This document shows positions 5,904 to 58,097 of a DNA stretch of 64,000 nt, in pieces; position 1 is the first letter of the stretch, and every line of letters starts with the position of its first letter. The notes under the pieces are model-generated. The model was not told where the DNA came from, did not search any database, and saw only the letters and a program-made list of their open reading frames with translations. The translations under genes and the position numbers were made by a program. Source of the DNA: Shigella phage vB_SsoM_113; sequence record LR746311. One strand, 5' to 3'.

Positions 5904-6388
5904 TTTTAAAAACTCGCTGGTATGATTTAGATGATGGGGACGATGGCATTTCAGTTGATAGAGTTGACTGGAGCGGCTGTTCTGAAGATACAAAGAAACG
6001 ATTAATTAGGGAGTTTAGAATGGGATATCAAGCAGTTAAGCCATCTACTGTAACAGATGATAAATTCGTGTGTATTCATAATGGTCGTGCTAAGTTAACG
6101 AATGCTGAATGGTTCACAGATAAGATTATGATTCTGTGGTATATCATTAGTCTTCCTGTGTCATCATTCGTATTTTACTTTTTTATAAAAAATCCAATGG
6201 ACAGAATAGGAGATTGGATTCTTTTAACCATACTTGTTAATATTTTTACAGCATCAATATTATCAGGAATATGGTACATGTTCATTGAAATGCCATGGCG
6301 GATGCGCAGACAACAAAAGATTTTTGATGAAAAGAAATATGCTCAAAATTTAAATAATTTTATCACTGAATGCAGGAAATTAAAATGA
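5900..6388 (+). CDS. membrane protein (162 aa)
   Basis: ORF track; two hydrophobic helices; tail ...ECRKLK. Confidence 0.6.
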   Translation: MILKTRWYDLDDGDDGISVDRVDWSGCSEDTKKRLIREFRMGYQAVKPSTVTDDKFVCIHNGRAKLTNAEWFTDKIMILWYIISLPVSSFVFYFFIKNPMDRIGDWILLTILVNIFTASILSGIWYMFIEMPWRMRRQQKIFDEKKYAQNLNNFITECRKLK

Positions 6389-11044: not shown

Positions 11045-11384
11045 AATTTTGGTTTTATGTATAGGATTAATTTCATTTTCTGCTTCTGCGTTAGCAGATA
11101 CATCATATACTGAAATTAGAGAGTATGTAAACCGTACTGCCGCGGATTATTGTGGGAAAAATAAAGCATGCCAAGCTGAATTTGCGCAGAAATTAATATA
11201 TGCATATAAAGACGGAGAAAGAGATAAATCAAGCAGATACAAAAATGATACATTGTTAAAACGATATGCTAAAAAGTGGAATACCTTAGAATGTTCAGTT
11301 GCGGAGGAGAAAGATAAAGCCGCTTGTCATTCAATGGTTGACCGTTTAGTAGATTCTTATAATCGAGGATTGAGTACTAGATGA
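11037..11384 (+). CDS. vs: valyl-tRNA synthetase modifier-like (115 aa)
   Basis: 115 aa as recalled for T4 Vs and in the regB/tk interval; identity not verified. Confidence 0.45.
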   Translation: MTKILVLCIGLISFSASALADTSYTEIREYVNRTAADYCGKNKACQAEFAQKLIYAYKDGERDKSSRYKNDTLLKRYAKKWNTLECSVAEEKDKAACHSMVDRLVDSYNRGLSTR

Positions 11385-11860
11385 TTGTAAAATATATCAA
11401 GGGCGATATTGTCGCCCTATTTCTTCAAGGTAATATTATTGCGCACGGGTGCAATTGCTTCCACACAATGGGCTCTGGCGTAGCGGGTCAATTAGCAAGA
11501 GCCTATCCCAAAATTTTAGAAATAGATAAAACCACTACCGAGTACGGTTCTCGTGATAAATTAGGCGATATGTCTATTGTTTTTAAACATAGTCCTACGG
11601 GATTTGGTATATGCTATAACCTGTATACACAATACGAACCGGGTCCTAATCTTGATTATGGTGCTTTAGTAAACTGCATGATAGAATTAAATCTACAGGC
11701 AGAAACCCTTTTGTTTAAACCAGTAATTTACATTCCACGTATAGGTTGCGGTATTGCTGGCGGCGATTGGGATAAGGTTTCTAAATTAATCGACATGTTT
11801 ACTCCTGATATTGATTTAATAGTGGTGGATTATGAAAGTACATTACCCGCATCCGTTTGA
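11381..11860 (+). CDS. macro domain protein (ADP-ribose binding/processing)
   Basis: Macro-domain glycine-rich motifs NIIAHGCNC...GSGVAG and IGCGIAGG; 159 aa. Confidence 0.7.
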   Translation: MIVKYIKGDIVALFLQGNIIAHGCNCFHTMGSGVAGQLARAYPKILEIDKTTTEYGSRDKLGDMSIVFKHSPTGFGICYNLYTQYEPGPNLDYGALVNCMIELNLQAETLLFKPVIYIPRIGCGIAGGDWDKVSKLIDMFTPDIDLIVVDYESTLPASV

Positions 11861-12247: not shown

Positions 12248-12417
12248 ATAGTTTTGAGTTACAATATGAAGTGTTATGTGAGCTTGATAATTTAATTGAA
12301 CTCGCTGTCAATAAAGGTTTTGCCATTGGAATCGGTCAAAAAGATACTGGTCATTTAACTATGGAAATATTTAAGCAAAAGCGAATTATTTTAAAACTCC
12401 TGGAAATTAATATATGA
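12244..12417 (+). CDS. hypothetical small protein (57 aa)
   Basis: Hand-translated ORF MNSFELQYEVLCELDNLIELAVNKGF..., start overlapping preceding stop; below the track's 60-aa cut-off. Confidence 0.4.
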   Translation: MNSFELQYEVLCELDNLIELAVNKGFAIGIGQKDTGHLTMEIFKQKRIILKLLEINI

Positions 12418-12599
12418 GTCTGAGTAAAGAACAAAAAGATAAATTGTTTGAGCTTATCCATGAACTTCTAGATGAGCATACAGAAGCAAACACCTTTTAT
12501 GATGAATGCGGCCCGCTATCTCCCGATCAGCAAGAAGAATTTGCTGATCGGTTTGATAAGAAAGAAAACGAATTAATAGCTTATGTGAATACGCTTTAA
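12414..12599 (+). CDS. hypothetical small helical protein (61 aa)
   Basis: ORF track; shares the N-terminal pattern of the 14230-15331 array. Confidence 0.5.
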   Translation: MSLSKEQKDKLFELIHELLDEHTEANTFYDECGPLSPDQQEEFADRFDKKENELIAYVNTL

Positions 12600-12608
12600 G
12601 AAGGTGAT

Positions 12609-13190
12609 ATGGCGAGTTTAATTTTTACTTACGCAGCAATGAATGCTGGAAAATCTGCTTCTCTTTTGACTGCTGCACATAATTATAAAGAACGCGGAAT
12701 GGGTGTATTAGTTCTTAAGCCTGCTATTGATACTCGCGATTCTGTCTGTGAAGTCGTTTCTCGCATTGGAATTAAGCAGGAAGCGAATATTATTACGGAT
12801 GATATGGATATTTTTGAGTTCTATAAATGGGCTGAAGCACAAAAAGATATTCATTGTGTATTTGTAGATGAAGCCCAGTTTTTAAAAACTGAACAGGTGC
12901 ATCAATTAAGCCGAATTGTTGATACATATAATGTTCCTGTTATGGCTTATGGACTAAGGACTGATTTCGCTGGAAAATTATTTGAAGGTTCTAAAGAACT
13001 TTTGGCGATTGCAGATAAACTTATTGAACTAAAGGCAGTTTGTCATTGTGGTAAAAAAGCTATTATGACAGCTCGATTAATGGAAGATGGAACACCAGTT
13101 AAAGAAGGTAATCAAATCTGTATTGGTGATGAAATTTATGTTTCTTTGTGTAGAAAACATTGGAATGAATTAACTAAAAAGCTCGGTTAG
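12609..13190 (+). CDS. tk: thymidine kinase
   Basis: 193 aa; P-loop MNAGKSASLL; matches recalled T4 Tk. Confidence 0.95.
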   Translation: MASLIFTYAAMNAGKSASLLTAAHNYKERGMGVLVLKPAIDTRDSVCEVVSRIGIKQEANIITDDMDIFEFYKWAEAQKDIHCVFVDEAQFLKTEQVHQLSRIVDTYNVPVMAYGLRTDFAGKLFEGSKELLAIADKLIELKAVCHCGKKAIMTARLMEDGTPVKEGNQICIGDEIYVSLCRKHWNELTKKLG

Positions 13191-14138: not shown

Positions 14139-14162
14139 AGTCTCCTTCGGGAGACTTTTTTC
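14139..14162 (+). terminator. rho-independent terminator
   Basis: AGTCTCC-TTCG-GGAGACT followed by TTTTTT. Confidence 0.75.
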
Positions 14163-14171
14163 ATTTTACCG

Positions 14172-14201
14172 GTTTACTTTCAATTTGAGCTGTGATACTA
14201 T
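14172..14201 (+). promoter_or_regulatory. T4-type early promoter
   Basis: GTTTAC, 18-bp spacer, TGATACTAT. Confidence 0.65.
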
Positions 14202-14229: not shown

Positions 14230-14418
14230 ATGAAAATTGAAGCACTCAATCAAGAAGGAAATATCTACGTCATCATTAATGGTGATTTTTTCGTCGACAT
14301 GGATGAAGTTACTAGTGAAGAACTTGTAGAACTTCTTAAGAAACGTTATGATATGTGTGATGAAGCTGCAACTCATATGGCGTGTGCAATATTCTCTCTT
14401 TCATATGTGGTGGAATAA
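14230..14418 (+). CDS. small helical protein (62 aa), member of tandem small-ORF array
   Basis: ATG at 14230 with GAGGAG upstream. Confidence 0.55.
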
Positions 14419-14621
14419 TGACTAGAATTGAACAAGCAGATAAAATTAAAGAATTGGTAGCTTTAATTCGCAAAGCAGATGAGGAACTTAGTGACTTTGC
14501 TTGGTTTTCGGCAGGCATTGCAAATAAAGGTATTGAAAAATTTGAAGCTAAAGTTAATAATGCTGTAGAAGCTTTAGATATGTTTCTTGATGAAATTATC
14601 GATCATAATACGAGAGTTTAA
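14418..14621 (+). CDS. small helical protein (67 aa), array member
   Basis: ATG overlapping preceding stop; [17 protein letters not shown]... Confidence 0.55.
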   Translation: MTRIEQADKIKELVALIRKADEELSDFAWFSAGIANKGIEKFEAKVNNAVEALDMFLDEIIDHNTRV

Positions 14622-14623
14622 GT

Positions 14624-14818
14624 ATGCTGACAAGTGAACAGTTTGAAAAAATCATTAAATTAGCACGTGATATTGAAATAGATTCATACCAATTAGCAGT
14701 TGAGCATTGTGAAGGATACTCATACGATGGTATAGAAGCAGCTAAAAAGGATTTGGATAAATCCAAAGCTAAGTTAGTTCAATATCTTGAAATGATTAGG
14801 TGGAATAATGAAAACTGA
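14624..14818 (+). CDS. small helical protein (64 aa), array member
   Basis: ORF track; MLTSEQFEKIIKLARDI... Confidence 0.55.
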   Translation: MLTSEQFEKIIKLARDIEIDSYQLAVEHCEGYSYDGIEAAKKDLDKSKAKLVQYLEMIRWNNEN

Positions 14819-14982
14819 AAAGCAGATGTTTTTAATGAAGCTAATTGAAGAATATGCTAATGCAGTTTCTGACTATGAGTATTCTGCTCGGGAAAGAGGT
14901 ACAGCTTTCGCAAAGGAAGAAATGAAAATCATGGTTGATGCTCACACAAAGCTTCAGAATTTTATTGAAAACGTCATTTAAT
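14809..14982 (+). CDS. small helical protein (57 aa), array member
   Basis: Hand-translated ORF MKTEKQMFLMKLIEEYANAV... Confidence 0.4.
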
Positions 14983-14983
14983 G

Positions 14984-15013
14984 GTTTACAAGTTGGCAAG
15001 GTTATGGTATAGT
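14984..15013 (+). promoter_or_regulatory. T4-type early promoter with imperfect flanking dyad
   Basis: GTTTAC, 18-bp spacer, TGGTATAGT. Confidence 0.65.
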
Positions 15014-15145
15014 AATCTTGTCAACTGCCAAGGAGAAGAGAATGAAAGTTTTGTTTGTTGTGTATGTGATGATTCAATACAATTACCCAATGTTTACTTA
15101 TAATCTGGTGAACAACATTATTGATATTATTCAAAGGAGCATGTA

Positions 15146-15331
15146 ATGACAGATGAACAAGCTTTTAAGTTAAGAGAATTAATTGAGACTTATAGTAAAG
15201 CTGTTCGTGCATCAACAATTATTGATGAATCAGCTTTCTCCGGACACGCTAATAAGATTAAATACAAAACTCTTATGGAAGAAGCTAAAGTAAATCTTGA
15301 TTCTTATATTAAAACTTTAATTGGTAAATAA
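15146..15331 (+). CDS. small helical protein (61 aa), array member
   Basis: ORF track; SD AAGGAG upstream; MTDEQAFKLRELIETY... Confidence 0.55.
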   Translation: MTDEQAFKLRELIETYSKAVRASTIIDESAFSGHANKIKYKTLMEEAKVNLDSYIKTLIGK

Positions 15332-15332
15332 T

Positions 15333-15875
15333 ATGAAAGCTATTATTGAAACAACTGATTTGTTCGGTGATCTAGTTATCGAAAAACGTGGTAATGTATA
15401 CGTTCTGACACAGGAAGACGATAGTATTACTATTCTTCCTATGGAACTAGCTGCGATTTTATCTTATACTCCCCCAGGAGTTACCAGTGTAACTAATATC
15501 ACAGGCGACCTCCAAGTTCGTTTTTATCGTGGCACTCACGGTGGTAATATTGAAACTGAACTTGTGTGTCTTTCTATCAATAATTGGGCAACATTCGTTG
15601 TTAAGGTGAAAGAATTCTTGGAATCTGAATCAGCCGAAACATCTGAAAAGGCTAAACTTCAATGGGCTAAAGATCGCAGTGCTAGCATTATTAATCCAGT
15701 AGCTGCAAACTATACTACGACTTTGGATGTCAAAACTTCTTATGAAGATGGTGATGTCGTACTTGTTCGCCAAATTGATGATTCTCGAGCACATATTGTC
15801 ACATTTACCAAAGACGAAGCTATTGCGCTAAAGACTTATCTCGATTCTGTCATTCCAACTATGATTTCAAAGTGA
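15333..15875 (+). CDS. hypothetical protein (180 aa), paralog of next gene
   Basis: ATG at 15333; C-terminus DEAIALKTYLDSVIPTM resembles SEAEAMIKYLTTVTPSM of the next ORF. Confidence 0.6.
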   Translation: MKAIIETTDLFGDLVIEKRGNVYVLTQEDDSITILPMELAAILSYTPPGVTSVTNITGDLQVRFYRGTHGGNIETELVCLSINNWATFVVKVKEFLESESAETSEKAKLQWAKDRSASIINPVAANYTTTLDVKTSYEDGDVVLVRQIDDSRAHIVTFTKDEAIALKTYLDSVIPTMISK

Positions 15876-15881
15876 GGAAAT

Positions 15882-16403
15882 ATGTTTATTTCAAGTGAAA
15901 GCGGTTTAATTCGTGTTGAATTTAAAAATGACATCTTTCTTATTCAAGGAGATGATATTATTAAAATGAGTTATGATGAAATCAAGAAAATTTGTCATGC
16001 TCTTGAAAGTCATGGAAAAGTGAACGCTGTTATTGATATAGGTGATTTATGGGTGACACTTTATGAAGTATCCGAAGGATTTAACATTGAAGATGAAAAC
16101 AACATCTTAGCTATTGACAAAAGAAGTGATTTGTTTGATGTGTTAAAAGTTTATGAACAGTCAAACGGTGGAAGAAAAGCTGCATTGATTTATCAAAAAC
16201 CACATTCATGTGGAACTGCTTCAATCATTTCAGATATTGAAGATGAAACTGATACTTATATGTGTGTTTTAAAAGCTGGTGGTGACCGTCATCCGGATTT
16301 TATTTCTATTCGTCAAAACAATGGAGAAATTTCATTATCAAAATCAGAAGCTGAAGCTATGATTAAGTATTTAACAACTGTTACACCTTCAATGAAAGGA
16401 TGA
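15882..16403 (+). CDS. hypothetical protein (173 aa), paralog of previous gene
   Basis: ORF track; SD GAGGAA upstream. Confidence 0.6.
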   Translation: MFISSESGLIRVEFKNDIFLIQGDDIIKMSYDEIKKICHALESHGKVNAVIDIGDLWVTLYEVSEGFNIEDENNILAIDKRSDLFDVLKVYEQSNGGRKAALIYQKPHSCGTASIISDIEDETDTYMCVLKAGGDRHPDFISIRQNNGEISLSKSEAEAMIKYLTTVTPSMKG

Positions 16404-16873
16404 TTATAATTATGGTTATTAATGAAAACTCTTGGCATTATAAATTATTCAAAATGTTTAACGACGAATGGAAACGACCTAAGACACTTTGTGCATATTT
16501 TTGGTCTATTGTTATCCCTACATTTTTCGTTTCTTTTTTCGGATGTACTATACTCGCAGGTCTAACTATTATCTGTGCAGAAATCATACAGAAATGGCTT
16601 ATTTTTGGTAGTTTATGGACTCTTATTCCATCAGCATTTATACTTGCCATTTTGCTTGTTTTACTTATTATTGGTTCATTTGTTATTCCTGCACAACTAC
16701 ATGAAAAATATAAAGATTATAAATGGAAAAAGGATTATGCTTTACATGTAGAAAATATTGATAGGGCGTATAAAGGTTTACCTCCTATTCAACCCAAGAA
16801 ATCTATTATCGTCGAATTTTTAAAAGCGCGTAAAGCTAAAGTATGTCCTGTTATTGAATATAAGGCTGAATGA
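16400..16873 (+). CDS. membrane protein (157 aa, about three TM helices)
   Basis: ORF track; hydrophobic segments. Confidence 0.6.
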   Translation: MIIIMVINENSWHYKLFKMFNDEWKRPKTLCAYFWSIVIPTFFVSFFGCTILAGLTIICAEIIQKWLIFGSLWTLIPSAFILAILLVLLIIGSFVIPAQLHEKYKDYKWKKDYALHVENIDRAYKGLPPIQPKKSIIVEFLKARKAKVCPVIEYKAE

Positions 16874-57473: not shown

Positions 57474-58097
57474 ATGATTATTAATCTCGCAGATGTTGAA
57501 CAGTTATCTATAAAAGCTGAAAGTGTTGATTTTCAATATGATATGTACAAAATGGTCTGTGAAAAATTTACTGACTTTGAACAGTCAGTTCTTTGGCAGT
57601 GTATGGAAGCCAAAAAGAATGAAGCTCTTCATCGGCAGTTGAATAAAATCGTTAAAAAGCATTTAACTAAATCGCCTTATCAGCTATATCGTGGTATATC
57701 AAAATCGACAAAAGAACTCATTAAAGATTTACAAGTTGGAGAAGTGTTTTCAACGAACAGAGTAGATTCATTTACTACTAGTTTGCACACAGCATGTGGT
57801 TTTTCTTATGTTGAATATTCCACTGAAATAATATTTCGCTTAAAAACTGACAAAGCTTTTAATTATTCTGACCATATCAGCGATATTATACTTTCTTCTC
57901 CTAATACTGAGTTTAAGTATACATATGAAGATACTGATGGATTAGATTCAGAACGTACTGATAACTTAATGATGATTGTACGTGAACAAGAATGGATGAT
58001 TCCAATTGGAAAGTATAAAATAACTTCTATTTCAAAAGAAAAATTACACGATTCATTTGGAACATTTAAAGTGTATGATATTGAGGTAGTTGAATGA
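57474..58097 (+). CDS. modB: ADP-ribosyltransferase ModB-like
   Basis: 207 aa from ATG 57474 after GGAGG; paralog of next ORF; size and order match T4 modB then modA (recalled). Confidence 0.7.
   Translation: MIINLADVEQLSIKAESVDFQYDMYKMVCEKFTDFEQSVLWQCMEAKKNEALHRQLNKIVKKHLTKSPYQLYRGISKSTKELIKDLQVGEVFSTNRVDSFTTSLHTACGFSYVEYSTEIIFRLKTDKAFNYSDHISDIILSSPNTEFKYTYEDTDGLDSERTDNLMMIVREQEWMIPIGKYKITSISKEKLHDSFGTFKVYDIEVVE

Follow-up and report, generated by a model that had tools for sequence, protein, structure and literature searches.

The window analysed here, a stretch of 64,000 nucleotides from Shigella phage vB_SsoM_113 (sequence record LR746311), is Tequatrovirus (T4-like coliphage) genome and carries the tk–rI–mobD region, in which the following features were located.

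12414..12599, + strand: DUF7438 copy of the T4 tk.2 orthologue type, 61 aa (PF24219 E 4.6e-19, 69.0 bits; phrog_653)
14139..14156, + strand: intrinsic-terminator-like hairpin with T-run after rI.-1, invariant in 7 Tequatrovirus sequences
14173..14201, + strand: T4-type early promoter read from the sequence, TTTACT-17 nt-TACTAT with TG upstream, kept in T4 and 5 relatives
14230..14418, + strand: mobD.5, 62 aa, first gene of its unit, not DUF7438 (phrog_3024 E 4e-44; T4 annotation)
14418..14621, + strand: mobD.4, DUF7438 copy, 67 aa, long-loop allele (PF24219 E 1.1e-15, 58.2 bits)
14624..14818, + strand: mobD.3, DUF7438 copy, 64 aa (PF24219 E 3.3e-17, 63.0 bits)
14808..14981, + strand: mobD.2a, intact full-length DUF7438 copy, 57 aa (PF24219 E 3.5e-16, 59.8 bits; phrog_2758)
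14985..15013, + strand: second early promoter, TTTACA-17 nt-TATAGT, TG-extended, from the promoter scan, invariant across 7 phages
15042..15146, + strand: mobD.2, hydrophobic peptide of 34 aa, not DUF7438 (annotated mobD.2 at the same position in RB10, RB68 and Sf22)
15146..15331, + strand: fifth DUF7438 copy, 61 aa, near-neutral charge (PF24219 E 2.3e-14, 53.9 bits; phrog_4859)
15333-15875 and 15882-16403, directly downstream of the 15146 copy: tandem y05I-like paralogues, putative transcription factors MobD.1

The initial annotation had read the ORFs at 14230, 14418, 14624, 14809 and 15146, together with one at 12414 upstream of tk, as a set of related small helical proteins, several of them overlapping start-to-stop. 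The ORFs exist as described, except that the fourth starts at 14808. Overlaps were found between mobD.5 and mobD.4 (TAATG) and between mobD.3 and mobD.2a (11 nt), but mobD.4 and mobD.3 are separated by a 2-nt gap. The stop codon of mobD.2 overlaps the start of the 15146 copy (TAATG coupling), which itself ends one base ahead of the mobD.1 start, and the 12414 copy, adjoining tk on the upstream side, has an ATG overlapping the stop codon of the ORF before it (ATGA). The hairpin at 14139..14156 sets the mobD.5 unit apart from the unit upstream. The promoter at 14173..14201 is the equivalent of the T4 mobD.5 promoter, which has been reported together with an early transcript (PMC1702504); it was absent from the promoter scan list because its score of 8/12 falls just below the threshold of the scanner. 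Conversion of the second promoter to T4 coordinates placed its -10 element at 57966-57961 and hence the start near 57954, which corresponds to Pe57954, a promoter named in PMC6024815. The gap in the proposed array between 14981 and 15146, overlooked at first reading, is filled by this conserved early promoter and by mobD.2, the first gene downstream of it (dN/dS 0.07, GRAVY +0.68). A 40-aa ORF at 14981-15103 was considered as a gene and rejected: the conserved early promoter lies within it, it matches no family, and at this place relatives annotate mobD.2 in another frame. The mobD region of T4 is mosaic and includes a homing endonuclease that is not present in the window.

Family membership was assessed with the Pfam model of DUF7438 (PF24219; 57 positions, gathering threshold 25 bits), against which five ORFs of the window score 54-69 bits, each covering model positions from approximately 1 to 57. 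Our own family HMM, searched against 953 six-frame ORFs of the window, retrieved exactly these five copies, the next best ORF having an E-value of 0.9. In a leave-out test, sequences with 35% or more identity to the tested copy were dropped from the HMM, the training pool having been collected by means of profiles in which all five copies were represented, and each copy was nevertheless recovered with an E-value of 2.6e-7 (12414), 3.5e-10 (mobD.4), 6e-9 (mobD.3), 5.1e-5 (mobD.2a) or 9.1e-7 (15146); none of 2000 composition-matched shuffles reached the real score and no other ORF of the window fell below an E-value of 0.1. Direct comparison of paralogue pairs was non-significant (phmmer E 0.15-9, identity 15-30%), as were some comparisons of orthogroup profiles, for example mobD.2a against tk.2, mobD.4 and mobD.3 (P 0.05-0.9). 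The window copies are 56-98% identical to their T4 or RB-phage orthologues and their genome positions match T4. Five of the six named ORFs therefore form one family by both Pfam and HMM, namely four of the five in the flagged array and the one upstream of tk, but the sixth, mobD.5 (14230-14418), is no member: it has no DUF7438 match at E<=1 in Pfam, and the family HMM does not retrieve it at E<10. The N-terminal pattern proposed as common to all six holds at the profile level but not in pairwise comparison, and in mobD.5 the resembling stretch, 'TSEELVELL', is internal. mobD.5 and rI.1, with their 'TSEE' and 'TEKQ' motifs, were considered as degenerate members and rejected, since the family HMM gives no score to either of them.

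The flagged array is real but ordinary, consisting of true, anciently diverged copies of a phage family already catalogued in Pfam (PF24219) and in PHROGs, so that the finding re-identifies a known domain of unknown function. The name 'helicase loader' given to the 15146 copy derives solely from PHROG (phrog_4859) and RefSeq; Pfam assigns this ORF only DUF7438, and a profile search of all PDB sequences gave no helicase loader at E<=10. Searches with PADLOC and NCBIfam returned nothing credible, the sole PADLOC entry being a partial match of 12.7 bits to a methyltransferase model of 587 positions. Compared with T4, the window has no tk.1, itself a family member in that phage, carries an intact mobD.2a, which in the T4 reference is frameshifted with its two halves in two frames, and has the extra fifth copy at 15146.

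Repeats at the DNA level were restricted to short two-copy matches, consistent with chance except for 13 identical nt shared by two start sites. Given the 15-30% identity of the paralogues and this lack of meaningful DNA repeats, the duplications are old and none is recent; the proposal that a small module was repeatedly duplicated is supported in this dated form, with counterparts in other genera. Positional counterparts of several copies were found in Mosigvirus, Gaprivervirus and Gelderlandvirus, and across genera the copies stay beside tk and beside mobD.1-type genes. Each Tequatrovirus carries 4-6 copies, and the fetched regions of other genera hold 2-3; in Melville no copy was detected in the mobD region at E<0.01. 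The 15146 type is accessory, being missing in T4 and RB68, and occurs in 192 phage records as against 585 for the mobD.3 type. A profile search of 1.84 billion proteins returned 39 representative clusters and the family is phage-restricted. The same search also drew two long coiled-coil proteins, which are matches of a spurious type. Matches fall in Straboviridae, in one N4-like phage and, weakly, in one Aeromonas phage; the single members in the N4-like phage and, again weakly, in a Casjensviridae phage lie in stretches without annotated tk or rI. The one distant member that was examined lies on a phage-like metagenome contig, and a tblastn search with the distant member P0143 against phage records found nothing.

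Selection was estimated as dN/dS (NG86) in a small sample of seven genomes, the window phage against six other Tequatroviruses, which gave gene-wide values of 0.07-0.23 and values of 0.25-0.37 for the variable centre of the hairpin, with dS at saturation between the divergent alleles of tk.2. Purifying selection thus acts on each copy. These low values, without any sign of positive selection, weaken an arms-race reading, and the description of the genes as a fast-evolving inhibitor family could not be upheld. Variation in mobD.4 and tk.2 is concentrated at the hairpin tip with termini nearly invariant, and the N- and C-terminal helices are near-invariant across dozens of 90%-identity clusters. 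The loop-length alleles of mobD.4 span 60-70 aa, the hairpin tip of mobD.3 carries the invariant motif EHCEGYSY in its conservation profile, and the tk.2-type protein is 56% identical to T4 Tk.2 while its neighbour tk is 99% identical. Diversity arises by gain and loss of copies and by the swapping of old alleles, and such turnover is present among close relatives (4-6 copies, the T4 pseudogene, the tk.2 alleles).

All five copies are single-domain proteins of 57-67 aa. AlphaFold predicted a two-helix hairpin for both copies that were modelled, with helices at residues 3-28 and 34-60 in the 15146 copy (pLDDT 85) and at residues 5-32 and 37-60 in the 12414 copy (pLDDT 91.9). When the fold was searched against PDB and BFVD, every match was either a generic hairpin or an uncharacterised phage protein, and all had E>0.01; small uncharacterised proteins of similar fold occur in many T4-like phages. 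The two-helix hairpin is a generic fold and its matches carry no functional information. An acidic helix had been proposed as a general trait, which the net charges contradict, ranging from -10 (12414 copy) to +0.6 (15146 copy), with T4 tk.1 also at about -10; paralogue charge is thus too heterogeneous for any single DNA-mimic-like property.

Three solved structures were compared. Rop/Rom of ColE1 plasmids is a helical hairpin of 63 aa whose dimer forms a four-helix bundle and binds RNA kissing complexes. A DUF7438 copy has the same size and antiparallel hairpin, superposing with a TM-score of 0.85 and an rmsd of 1.3 Å over 57 residues, but at 16% identity, with a Foldseek E-value of 1.6-1.8 and without a Rop Pfam match at E<=1, so that this is a generic hairpin match only. 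Rop is moreover a plasmid copy-control gene, whereas the genes studied here are phage early genes, and for DUF7438 dimerisation and RNA binding are conjecture. Aqs1 of Pseudomonas phage DMS3 (PDB ID: 6v7w) is likewise small, phage-encoded and early, has a helical hairpin and binds the host regulator LasR; it exemplifies the blocking of a host protein through direct binding by a scaffold of this kind, a mode of action that DUF7438 may share. However, Aqs1 was a weak generic match (rank 33, E 3.0, TMq 0.65, 14% identity) from another phage group and host, and no evidence ties DUF7438 to quorum sensing. The sole solved structure with a near-threshold profile match (E 0.0014, 22 bits) was an anti-CRISPR (PDB ID: 23aa, chain A), a helical and acidic phage inhibitor, but this match is split into partial stretches (best i-E 0.05) and the protein has 108 aa and another architecture; the relation was judged unreliable, most likely reflecting compositional or helical similarity, and was kept as a lead only.

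Translation of the T4 orthologues is supported by published proteomics, in which MobD.3, MobD.4, Tk.1 and Tk.2 were all detected, MobD.3 and MobD.4 with early RNA and early protein and Tk.1 and Tk.2 with early RNA and middle protein (PMC9697503 and supplements). Both checks proposed in the initial annotation, similarity on formal alignment and translation, thus speak for genuine genes, the former through alignment and HMM and the latter through these T4 data. Knock-down in T4 had no fitness effect (PMC11879866 supplement) and the segment nrdC.11-mobD.3 is deletable (PMC9825161). tk.4, which belongs to the same early gene cluster and precedes the tk.2-like copy by approximately 550 bp, has been reported as the anti-DarTG2 factor AdfM (preprint 10.1101/2025.11.20.689424); an argument from this neighbourhood is weak because the whole T4 region is packed with small early genes. 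The searchable literature contains no functional study, partner, phenotype or activity for DUF7438, mobD.3, mobD.4, mobD.2a or tk.2.

The reading that we favour, at about an even chance of being right, is that the five genes are old DUF7438 paralogues encoding small early proteins that modulate partners in the host or its defences by binding. They comprise the T4 tk.2, mobD.4, mobD.3 and mobD.2a types and one extra copy, encode soluble proteins of approximately 60 aa with predicted antiparallel hairpins, and lie in tight, partly translationally coupled units behind sigma-70-type T4 early promoters, the array lying behind the two conserved ones. In T4, the orthologues are synthesised during the first minutes after infection and are dispensable on laboratory hosts. 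On the favoured reading, the copies would matter only on particular hosts. The positions conserved family-wide are mostly hydrophobic with a helix-like spacing of 3-4 and probably make up the scaffold. By contrast, each paralogue has helix surfaces and a hairpin tip of its own, conserved within it, which suggests that each paralogue probably binds a different macromolecular partner. Binding might take place as a Rop-like dimer. Our best guess at function is that of small early accessory proteins that bind partners from the host or the phage and serve takeover or counter-defence; in this role they would modulate proteins of the host or its defences stoichiometrically while takeover is at an early stage. 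A bolder version, which we regard as possible though doubtful, is that the paralogues form a diversified panel of early counter-defence or takeover binders on one hairpin scaffold, each neutralising a different host factor, with tip alleles (long or short loop in mobD.4, T4-type or RB-type tk.2) and copy gain and loss helping to set the host range of T4-like phages.

Other explanations were weighed against the same data. A chance resemblance among unrelated small helical or non-coding ORFs, sharing a common helix-start motif in an AT-rich genome, would account for the non-significant paralogue and profile-profile comparisons, and helical charged sequences can indeed draw spurious matches such as the two coiled-coil proteins. 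It is nonetheless effectively refuted by the curated Pfam model matching all five ORFs, by the leave-out HMM with its shuffles, by dN/dS well below 1 and by the T4 proteomics, and the similar lengths and the fold predicted for the two modelled copies also argue against it. That the copies are largely functionless duplicates of a hyperplastic region, persisting through recombination around the mobD homing-endonuclease site, appears quite improbable: the lack of a fitness effect upon knock-down or deletion, the frameshifted T4 mobD.2a, the patchy presence of copies and the mosaic region, with an endonuclease in T4 but not in the window, are as expected of such passengers, but purifying selection acts on every intact copy, the terminal helices are near-invariant, positional counterparts are kept across genera and the T4 proteins are expressed.

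Two further possibilities accept that the proteins are functional and differ as to the partner. Small acidic phage proteins such as Ocr, Arn and T7 gp5.9 act as DNA mimics, and the tk.2-type and T4 tk.1 copies, with a net charge of about -10 over 61 aa, could block host DNA-binding enzymes in this manner; alternatively, with Rop among the best solved-structure matches, the copies could be RNA-binding dimers tuning early phage or host mRNAs. Either nucleic-acid function is considered unlikely, since the Rop match is generic, charge is unconserved across paralogues and neither a basic patch nor any known motif for nucleic-acid binding was detected. We give similarly little weight to a role within the phage, as small adaptors or regulators whose partners would be not host proteins but MobD.1, thymidine kinase or the rI lysis-inhibition module. 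The conserved position beside tk and mobD.1-type genes and the single base between the 15146 copy and mobD.1, with the y05I-like paralogues directly downstream, are consistent with such a role, but copies come and go independently of these neighbours: RB68 and T4 have mobD.1 without the 15146 copy, the mobD region of Melville yielded none at E<0.01, and the N4-like and Casjensviridae members lie without annotated tk or rI nearby. Knock-down was moreover without fitness effect although rI and tk functions are measurable.

The practical gain is a cleaner annotation: it is now defined which ORFs are family members, T4 mobD.2a is recognised as a frameshifted copy, and the labels 'helicase loader' and 'molybdopterin ... 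MobD' on these genes are found to be unsupported. Should each copy of DUF7438 prove to bind a host or defence protein specifically, several new modules of phage–host interaction would be gained in the lytic phage that has been studied best, and the family would help to explain host-range differences among therapeutic T4-like phages.

The 3.5-kb stretch around the array shares 96-99% identity with hundreds of Tequatrovirus genomes, the closest being that of Escherichia phage vB_Eco_ZCEC15 (98.7%). On the + strand of the window the gene order, relative to annotated T4, is tk.4, tk.3, tk.2, tk, rI.1, rI, rI.-1, mobD.5, mobD.4, mobD.3, mobD.2a, mobD.2, mobD.1 and nrdC.11, and includes the following features.

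12414-12599, +, gene of the T4 tk.2 type, DUF7438 (T4 comparison, Pfam match)
12609-13190, +, tk, thymidine kinase
14139-14156, +, terminator-like hairpin 3' of rI.-1
14173-14201, +, T4-type early promoter 5' of mobD.5 (TTTACT-17 nt-TACTAT, TG upstream)
14230 (start), +, mobD.5, outside DUF7438 (T4 mapping)
14418 (start), +, mobD.4, DUF7438 (T4 mapping)
14624 (start), +, mobD.3, DUF7438 (T4 mapping)
14808 (start), +, full-length mobD.2a, DUF7438 (T4 mapping)
14985-15013, +, second early promoter, kept unchanged in seven phages
15042-15146, +, mobD.2, hydrophobic peptide of 34 aa
15146 (start), +, DUF7438 copy without a T4 counterpart

mobD.5 and mobD.4 overlap by 1 nt (TAATG), mobD.4 and mobD.3 are 2 nt apart, and mobD.3 and mobD.2a overlap by 11 nt; mobD.1 starts one base after the end of the 15146 copy. 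An identical 13-mer, GGTGGAATAATGA, comprising a Shine-Dalgarno sequence, spacer and start codon, lies 5' of both mobD.4 (14409-14421) and mobD.2a (14799-14811), both times overlapping the 3' end of the preceding gene; it could reflect chance or a common translational-coupling signal.

The initial annotation had read six small ORFs (the tk.2 type, mobD.5 to mobD.2a and the 15146 copy) as the likely result of repeated duplication of one module. Five of them are real homologues, matching Pfam DUF7438 (PF24219) over the full model with 54-69 bits (cut-off 25 bits), and the mobD.5 ORF, which did not match this model, drops out. The acidic helix proposed as a shared feature was not general, the net charge of the copies spanning -10 to +0.6. 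In PHROGs, tk.2, mobD.4 and mobD.3 are assigned to phrog_653, mobD.2a to phrog_2758 and the 15146 copy to phrog_4859, with cross-hits between these assignments at E 1e-3 to 1e-6. Pairwise identities among the window paralogues are 15-30% and direct comparisons using phmmer were not significant (E 0.15-9), so their similarity exists at the profile level only; no significant DNA repeats join the copies. When the window's 953 six-frame ORFs (30 aa or longer) were scanned with an HMM built from 21 family sequences, exactly the five copies were retrieved (next best E 0.9). Profile-profile comparison of shallow orthogroup alignments linked mobD.4 with mobD.3 (P 3e-5), tk.2 with mobD.4 (P 3e-4) and mobD.2a with the 15146 copy (P 2e-4); links between the tk.2/mobD.4/mobD.3 and mobD.2a/15146 subgroups reached P 3e-3 to 5e-3, and mobD.2a against tk.2, mobD.4 and mobD.3 was not significant. 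The HMM was also rebuilt for each copy after dropping all sequences that share 35% identity or more with it; every copy was still recovered, with E 5e-5 to 3.5e-10, from a training pool that is not fully independent, having been gathered with profiles containing all five. No further window ORF scored better than E 0.1 and, of 2000 composition-matched shuffles, none equalled the real score. This result is matched by the separately curated Pfam model and by the PHROG cross-hits, and the similarity among the five copies is upheld by family, leave-out and Pfam models. The array observation, confirmed in part, is correct in essence and already known: Pfam and PHROGs list the family with its several T4 copies, and deposited sequences match the window's proteins identically or nearly so.

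Searched exhaustively with an HMM, 1.84 billion representative proteins yielded only 39 clusters, nearly all of 53-67 aa; two of the clusters, long coiled-coil proteins, are apparently false positives. A word-indexed search gave 115 clusters at 90% identity, which split cleanly into five orthogroups and, where the source was named, came from T4-like coliphages or bacterial assemblies; one distant member lies on a metagenome contig that is phage-like. A tblastn search of 50,697 phage records recovered the mobD.3 type from 585 of them, the mobD.2a type from 491 and the 15146 type from 192.

DUF7438 copies per phage, from HMM scans of fetched loci (outside Tequatrovirus, 8-12 kb around the match only)
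T4 (Tequatrovirus): 4 intact (tk.2, tk.1, mobD.4, mobD.3) and a frameshifted mobD.2a
Window, ESh25, RB10, Sf22 (Tequatrovirus): 5 each
JEP6 (Tequatrovirus): 6
RB68 (Tequatrovirus): 4
MM02 (Mosigvirus): 3
PhAPEC2 (Mosigvirus): 2
P896 (Gaprivervirus): 3
Melville (Gelderlandvirus): 2, arranged in tandem 5' of tk
IME11 (N4-like): 1, among small genes adjoining a gp1-like ORF
13AC503A (Aeromonas Casjensviridae): 1 weak match

In T4, one DUF7438 gene is frameshifted (positions 5997-6178, minus strand, of the locus fetched from NC_000866): mobD.2a, annotated there with 38 aa, represents its N-terminal half, and the C-terminal half, KEEMKIMVDAHTKLQNFIENVI, can still be read in a different frame. The gene is intact, with 57 aa, in the window and most relatives.

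Two copies were modelled using AlphaFold2 with family alignments. The 15146 copy (helices 3-28 and 34-60, pLDDT 85) and the tk.2-type copy (helices 5-32 and 37-60, pLDDT 92) were predicted to share one fold, an antiparallel two-helix hairpin. Family-wide conservation covers an M-[IL]-T-x-E-Q stretch at the N-terminus, a glycine in the turn and, in both helices, hydrophobic residues at intervals of 3-4, and we infer that these positions form the scaffold; the remaining helix positions vary from paralogue to paralogue. Foldseek against the PDB returned generic hairpins only (E>0.5), among them Rop, HR1 domains and Aqs1 of phage DMS3, and the best viral models were uncharacterised proteins of ~60 aa from many T4-like and some other phages. 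Across all PDB sequences, the sole solved structure near threshold was PDB 23aa chain A (108 aa, deposited as 'Anti-CRISPR protein'), whose one marginal, fragmented profile match (E 0.0014) probably reflects helical or compositional similarity and is a lead only. PADLOC and NCBIfam searches with the copies gave nothing credible.

In comparisons of the window with six other Tequatroviruses, dN/dS of the DUF7438 copies is 0.07-0.23 (tk and rI.-1, 0.02; mobD.5 and tk.4, about 0.2), and selection on them looks purifying from these alignments. Variation in mobD.4 and tk.2, including indels, is centred on the turn between the helices, where dN/dS is only 0.27-0.37, and their first ~20 and last ~18 residues are almost invariant; the corresponding mobD.3 motif, EHCEGYSY, is invariant. 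At tk.2, two old alleles are 56% identical at the protein level with dS >1.5 (~1.9 for window versus T4), whereas the adjoining tk is 99% identical between window and T4 (dS ~0.1), giving a sharp mosaic boundary that points to allele exchange through recombination rather than rapid point mutation. T4 and JEP6 carry an extra copy, tk.1, between tk.2 and tk, which the window lacks.

T4 and five relatives retain the promoter at 14173-14201, and the T4 mobD.5 promoter and its early transcript have been described (PMC1702504). The 165-nt gap 5' of the 15146 copy contains the second early promoter and mobD.2, which this promoter drives. By coordinate conversion the T4 equivalent of this promoter has the -10 element at 57966-57961 and a start near 57954; it is the early promoter named 'Pe57954' (PMC6024815). 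MobD.2 (MKVLFVVYVMIQYNYPMFTYNLVNNIIDIIQRSM, 34 aa) is strongly hydrophobic and conserved (dN/dS 0.07), may be a small membrane peptide, and has a stop codon that overlaps the 15146 start codon as TAATG. A 40-aa ORF at 14981-15103, spanning the second promoter, was rejected as probably spurious.

In time-resolved omics of T4 (PMC9697503, supplementary files 4 and 6), mobD.3 and mobD.4 are classed as early RNA and early protein, tk.1 and tk.2 as early RNA and middle protein, and mobD.5, mobD.2a and mobD.2 as early RNA only (protein class 'NA'); proteomics bears out translation of the orthologues MobD.3, MobD.4 and Tk.2, and of Tk.1. Genome-wide dCas13d knock-down in T4 gave no fitness effect for mobD.2a, mobD.3, mobD.4, tk.1 and tk.2, which are listed there as of unknown function (PMC11879866 supplements), and a genome-reduction study obtained viable T4 with nrdC.11-mobD.3 removed (PMC9825161). 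The searchable literature assigns no function to any DUF7438 gene.

The neighbouring T4 macrodomain gene tk.4 is reported to encode the anti-DarTG2 factor AdfM (2025 preprint 10.1101/2025.11.20.689424), and the window carries a strongly diverged allele at 11381-11860 (+), 58% identical to T4 Tk.4. Directly downstream of the array is a second tandem duplication (15333-15875 and 15882-16403, +) of y05I-like 'putative transcription factor' genes of the T4 mobD.1 type (PF24449 and PF24448; mutual identity 29%). In T4 a single y05I-like gene precedes the mobD homing endonuclease, which is missing from the window; the second y05I-like gene and an ORF of 157 aa (16400-16873), by sequence apparently a membrane protein, take its place there. 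Database proteins of the mobD.4 and mobD.5 types are labelled 'Molybdopterin-guanine dinucleotide biosynthesis protein MobD', apparently through collision with the gene name mobD, those of the 15146 type 'Helicase loader', and the nrdC.11-type nucleotidyltransferase 'Thioredoxin'. Pfam and PDB searches gave no support for the molybdopterin 'MobD' or 'helicase loader' labels, and misleading product names are being propagated among orthologue annotations.

DUF7438 is a genuine family of predicted hairpin proteins of ~60 aa, restricted to phages and diversified long ago, and its genes lie behind early promoters, have translated T4 orthologues, are non-essential in the laboratory, are under purifying selection copy by copy and vary in copy content. 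Chance resemblance, read against the insignificant phmmer pairs on one side and the shuffles on the other, has a negligible probability. Functionless passengers, a reading that the dispensability in T4 favours and the low dN/dS opposes, are very improbable. A role directed at nucleic acids and an adaptor role internal to the phage are unlikely to an equal degree.

The conserved core and paralogue-specific surfaces suggest a single scaffold whose copies, perhaps as Rop-like dimers, would bind distinct partners. The genes are early, dispensable and patchily distributed and have an anti-defence neighbour, all of which favours host takeover or counter-defence as the process served; counter-defence specifically is a tentative reading, somewhat likelier than either the nucleic-acid or the phage-internal role. 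The overall explanation, to which we give about an even chance, is that DUF7438 would be a diverged scaffold family binding partners in host takeover or counter-defence.
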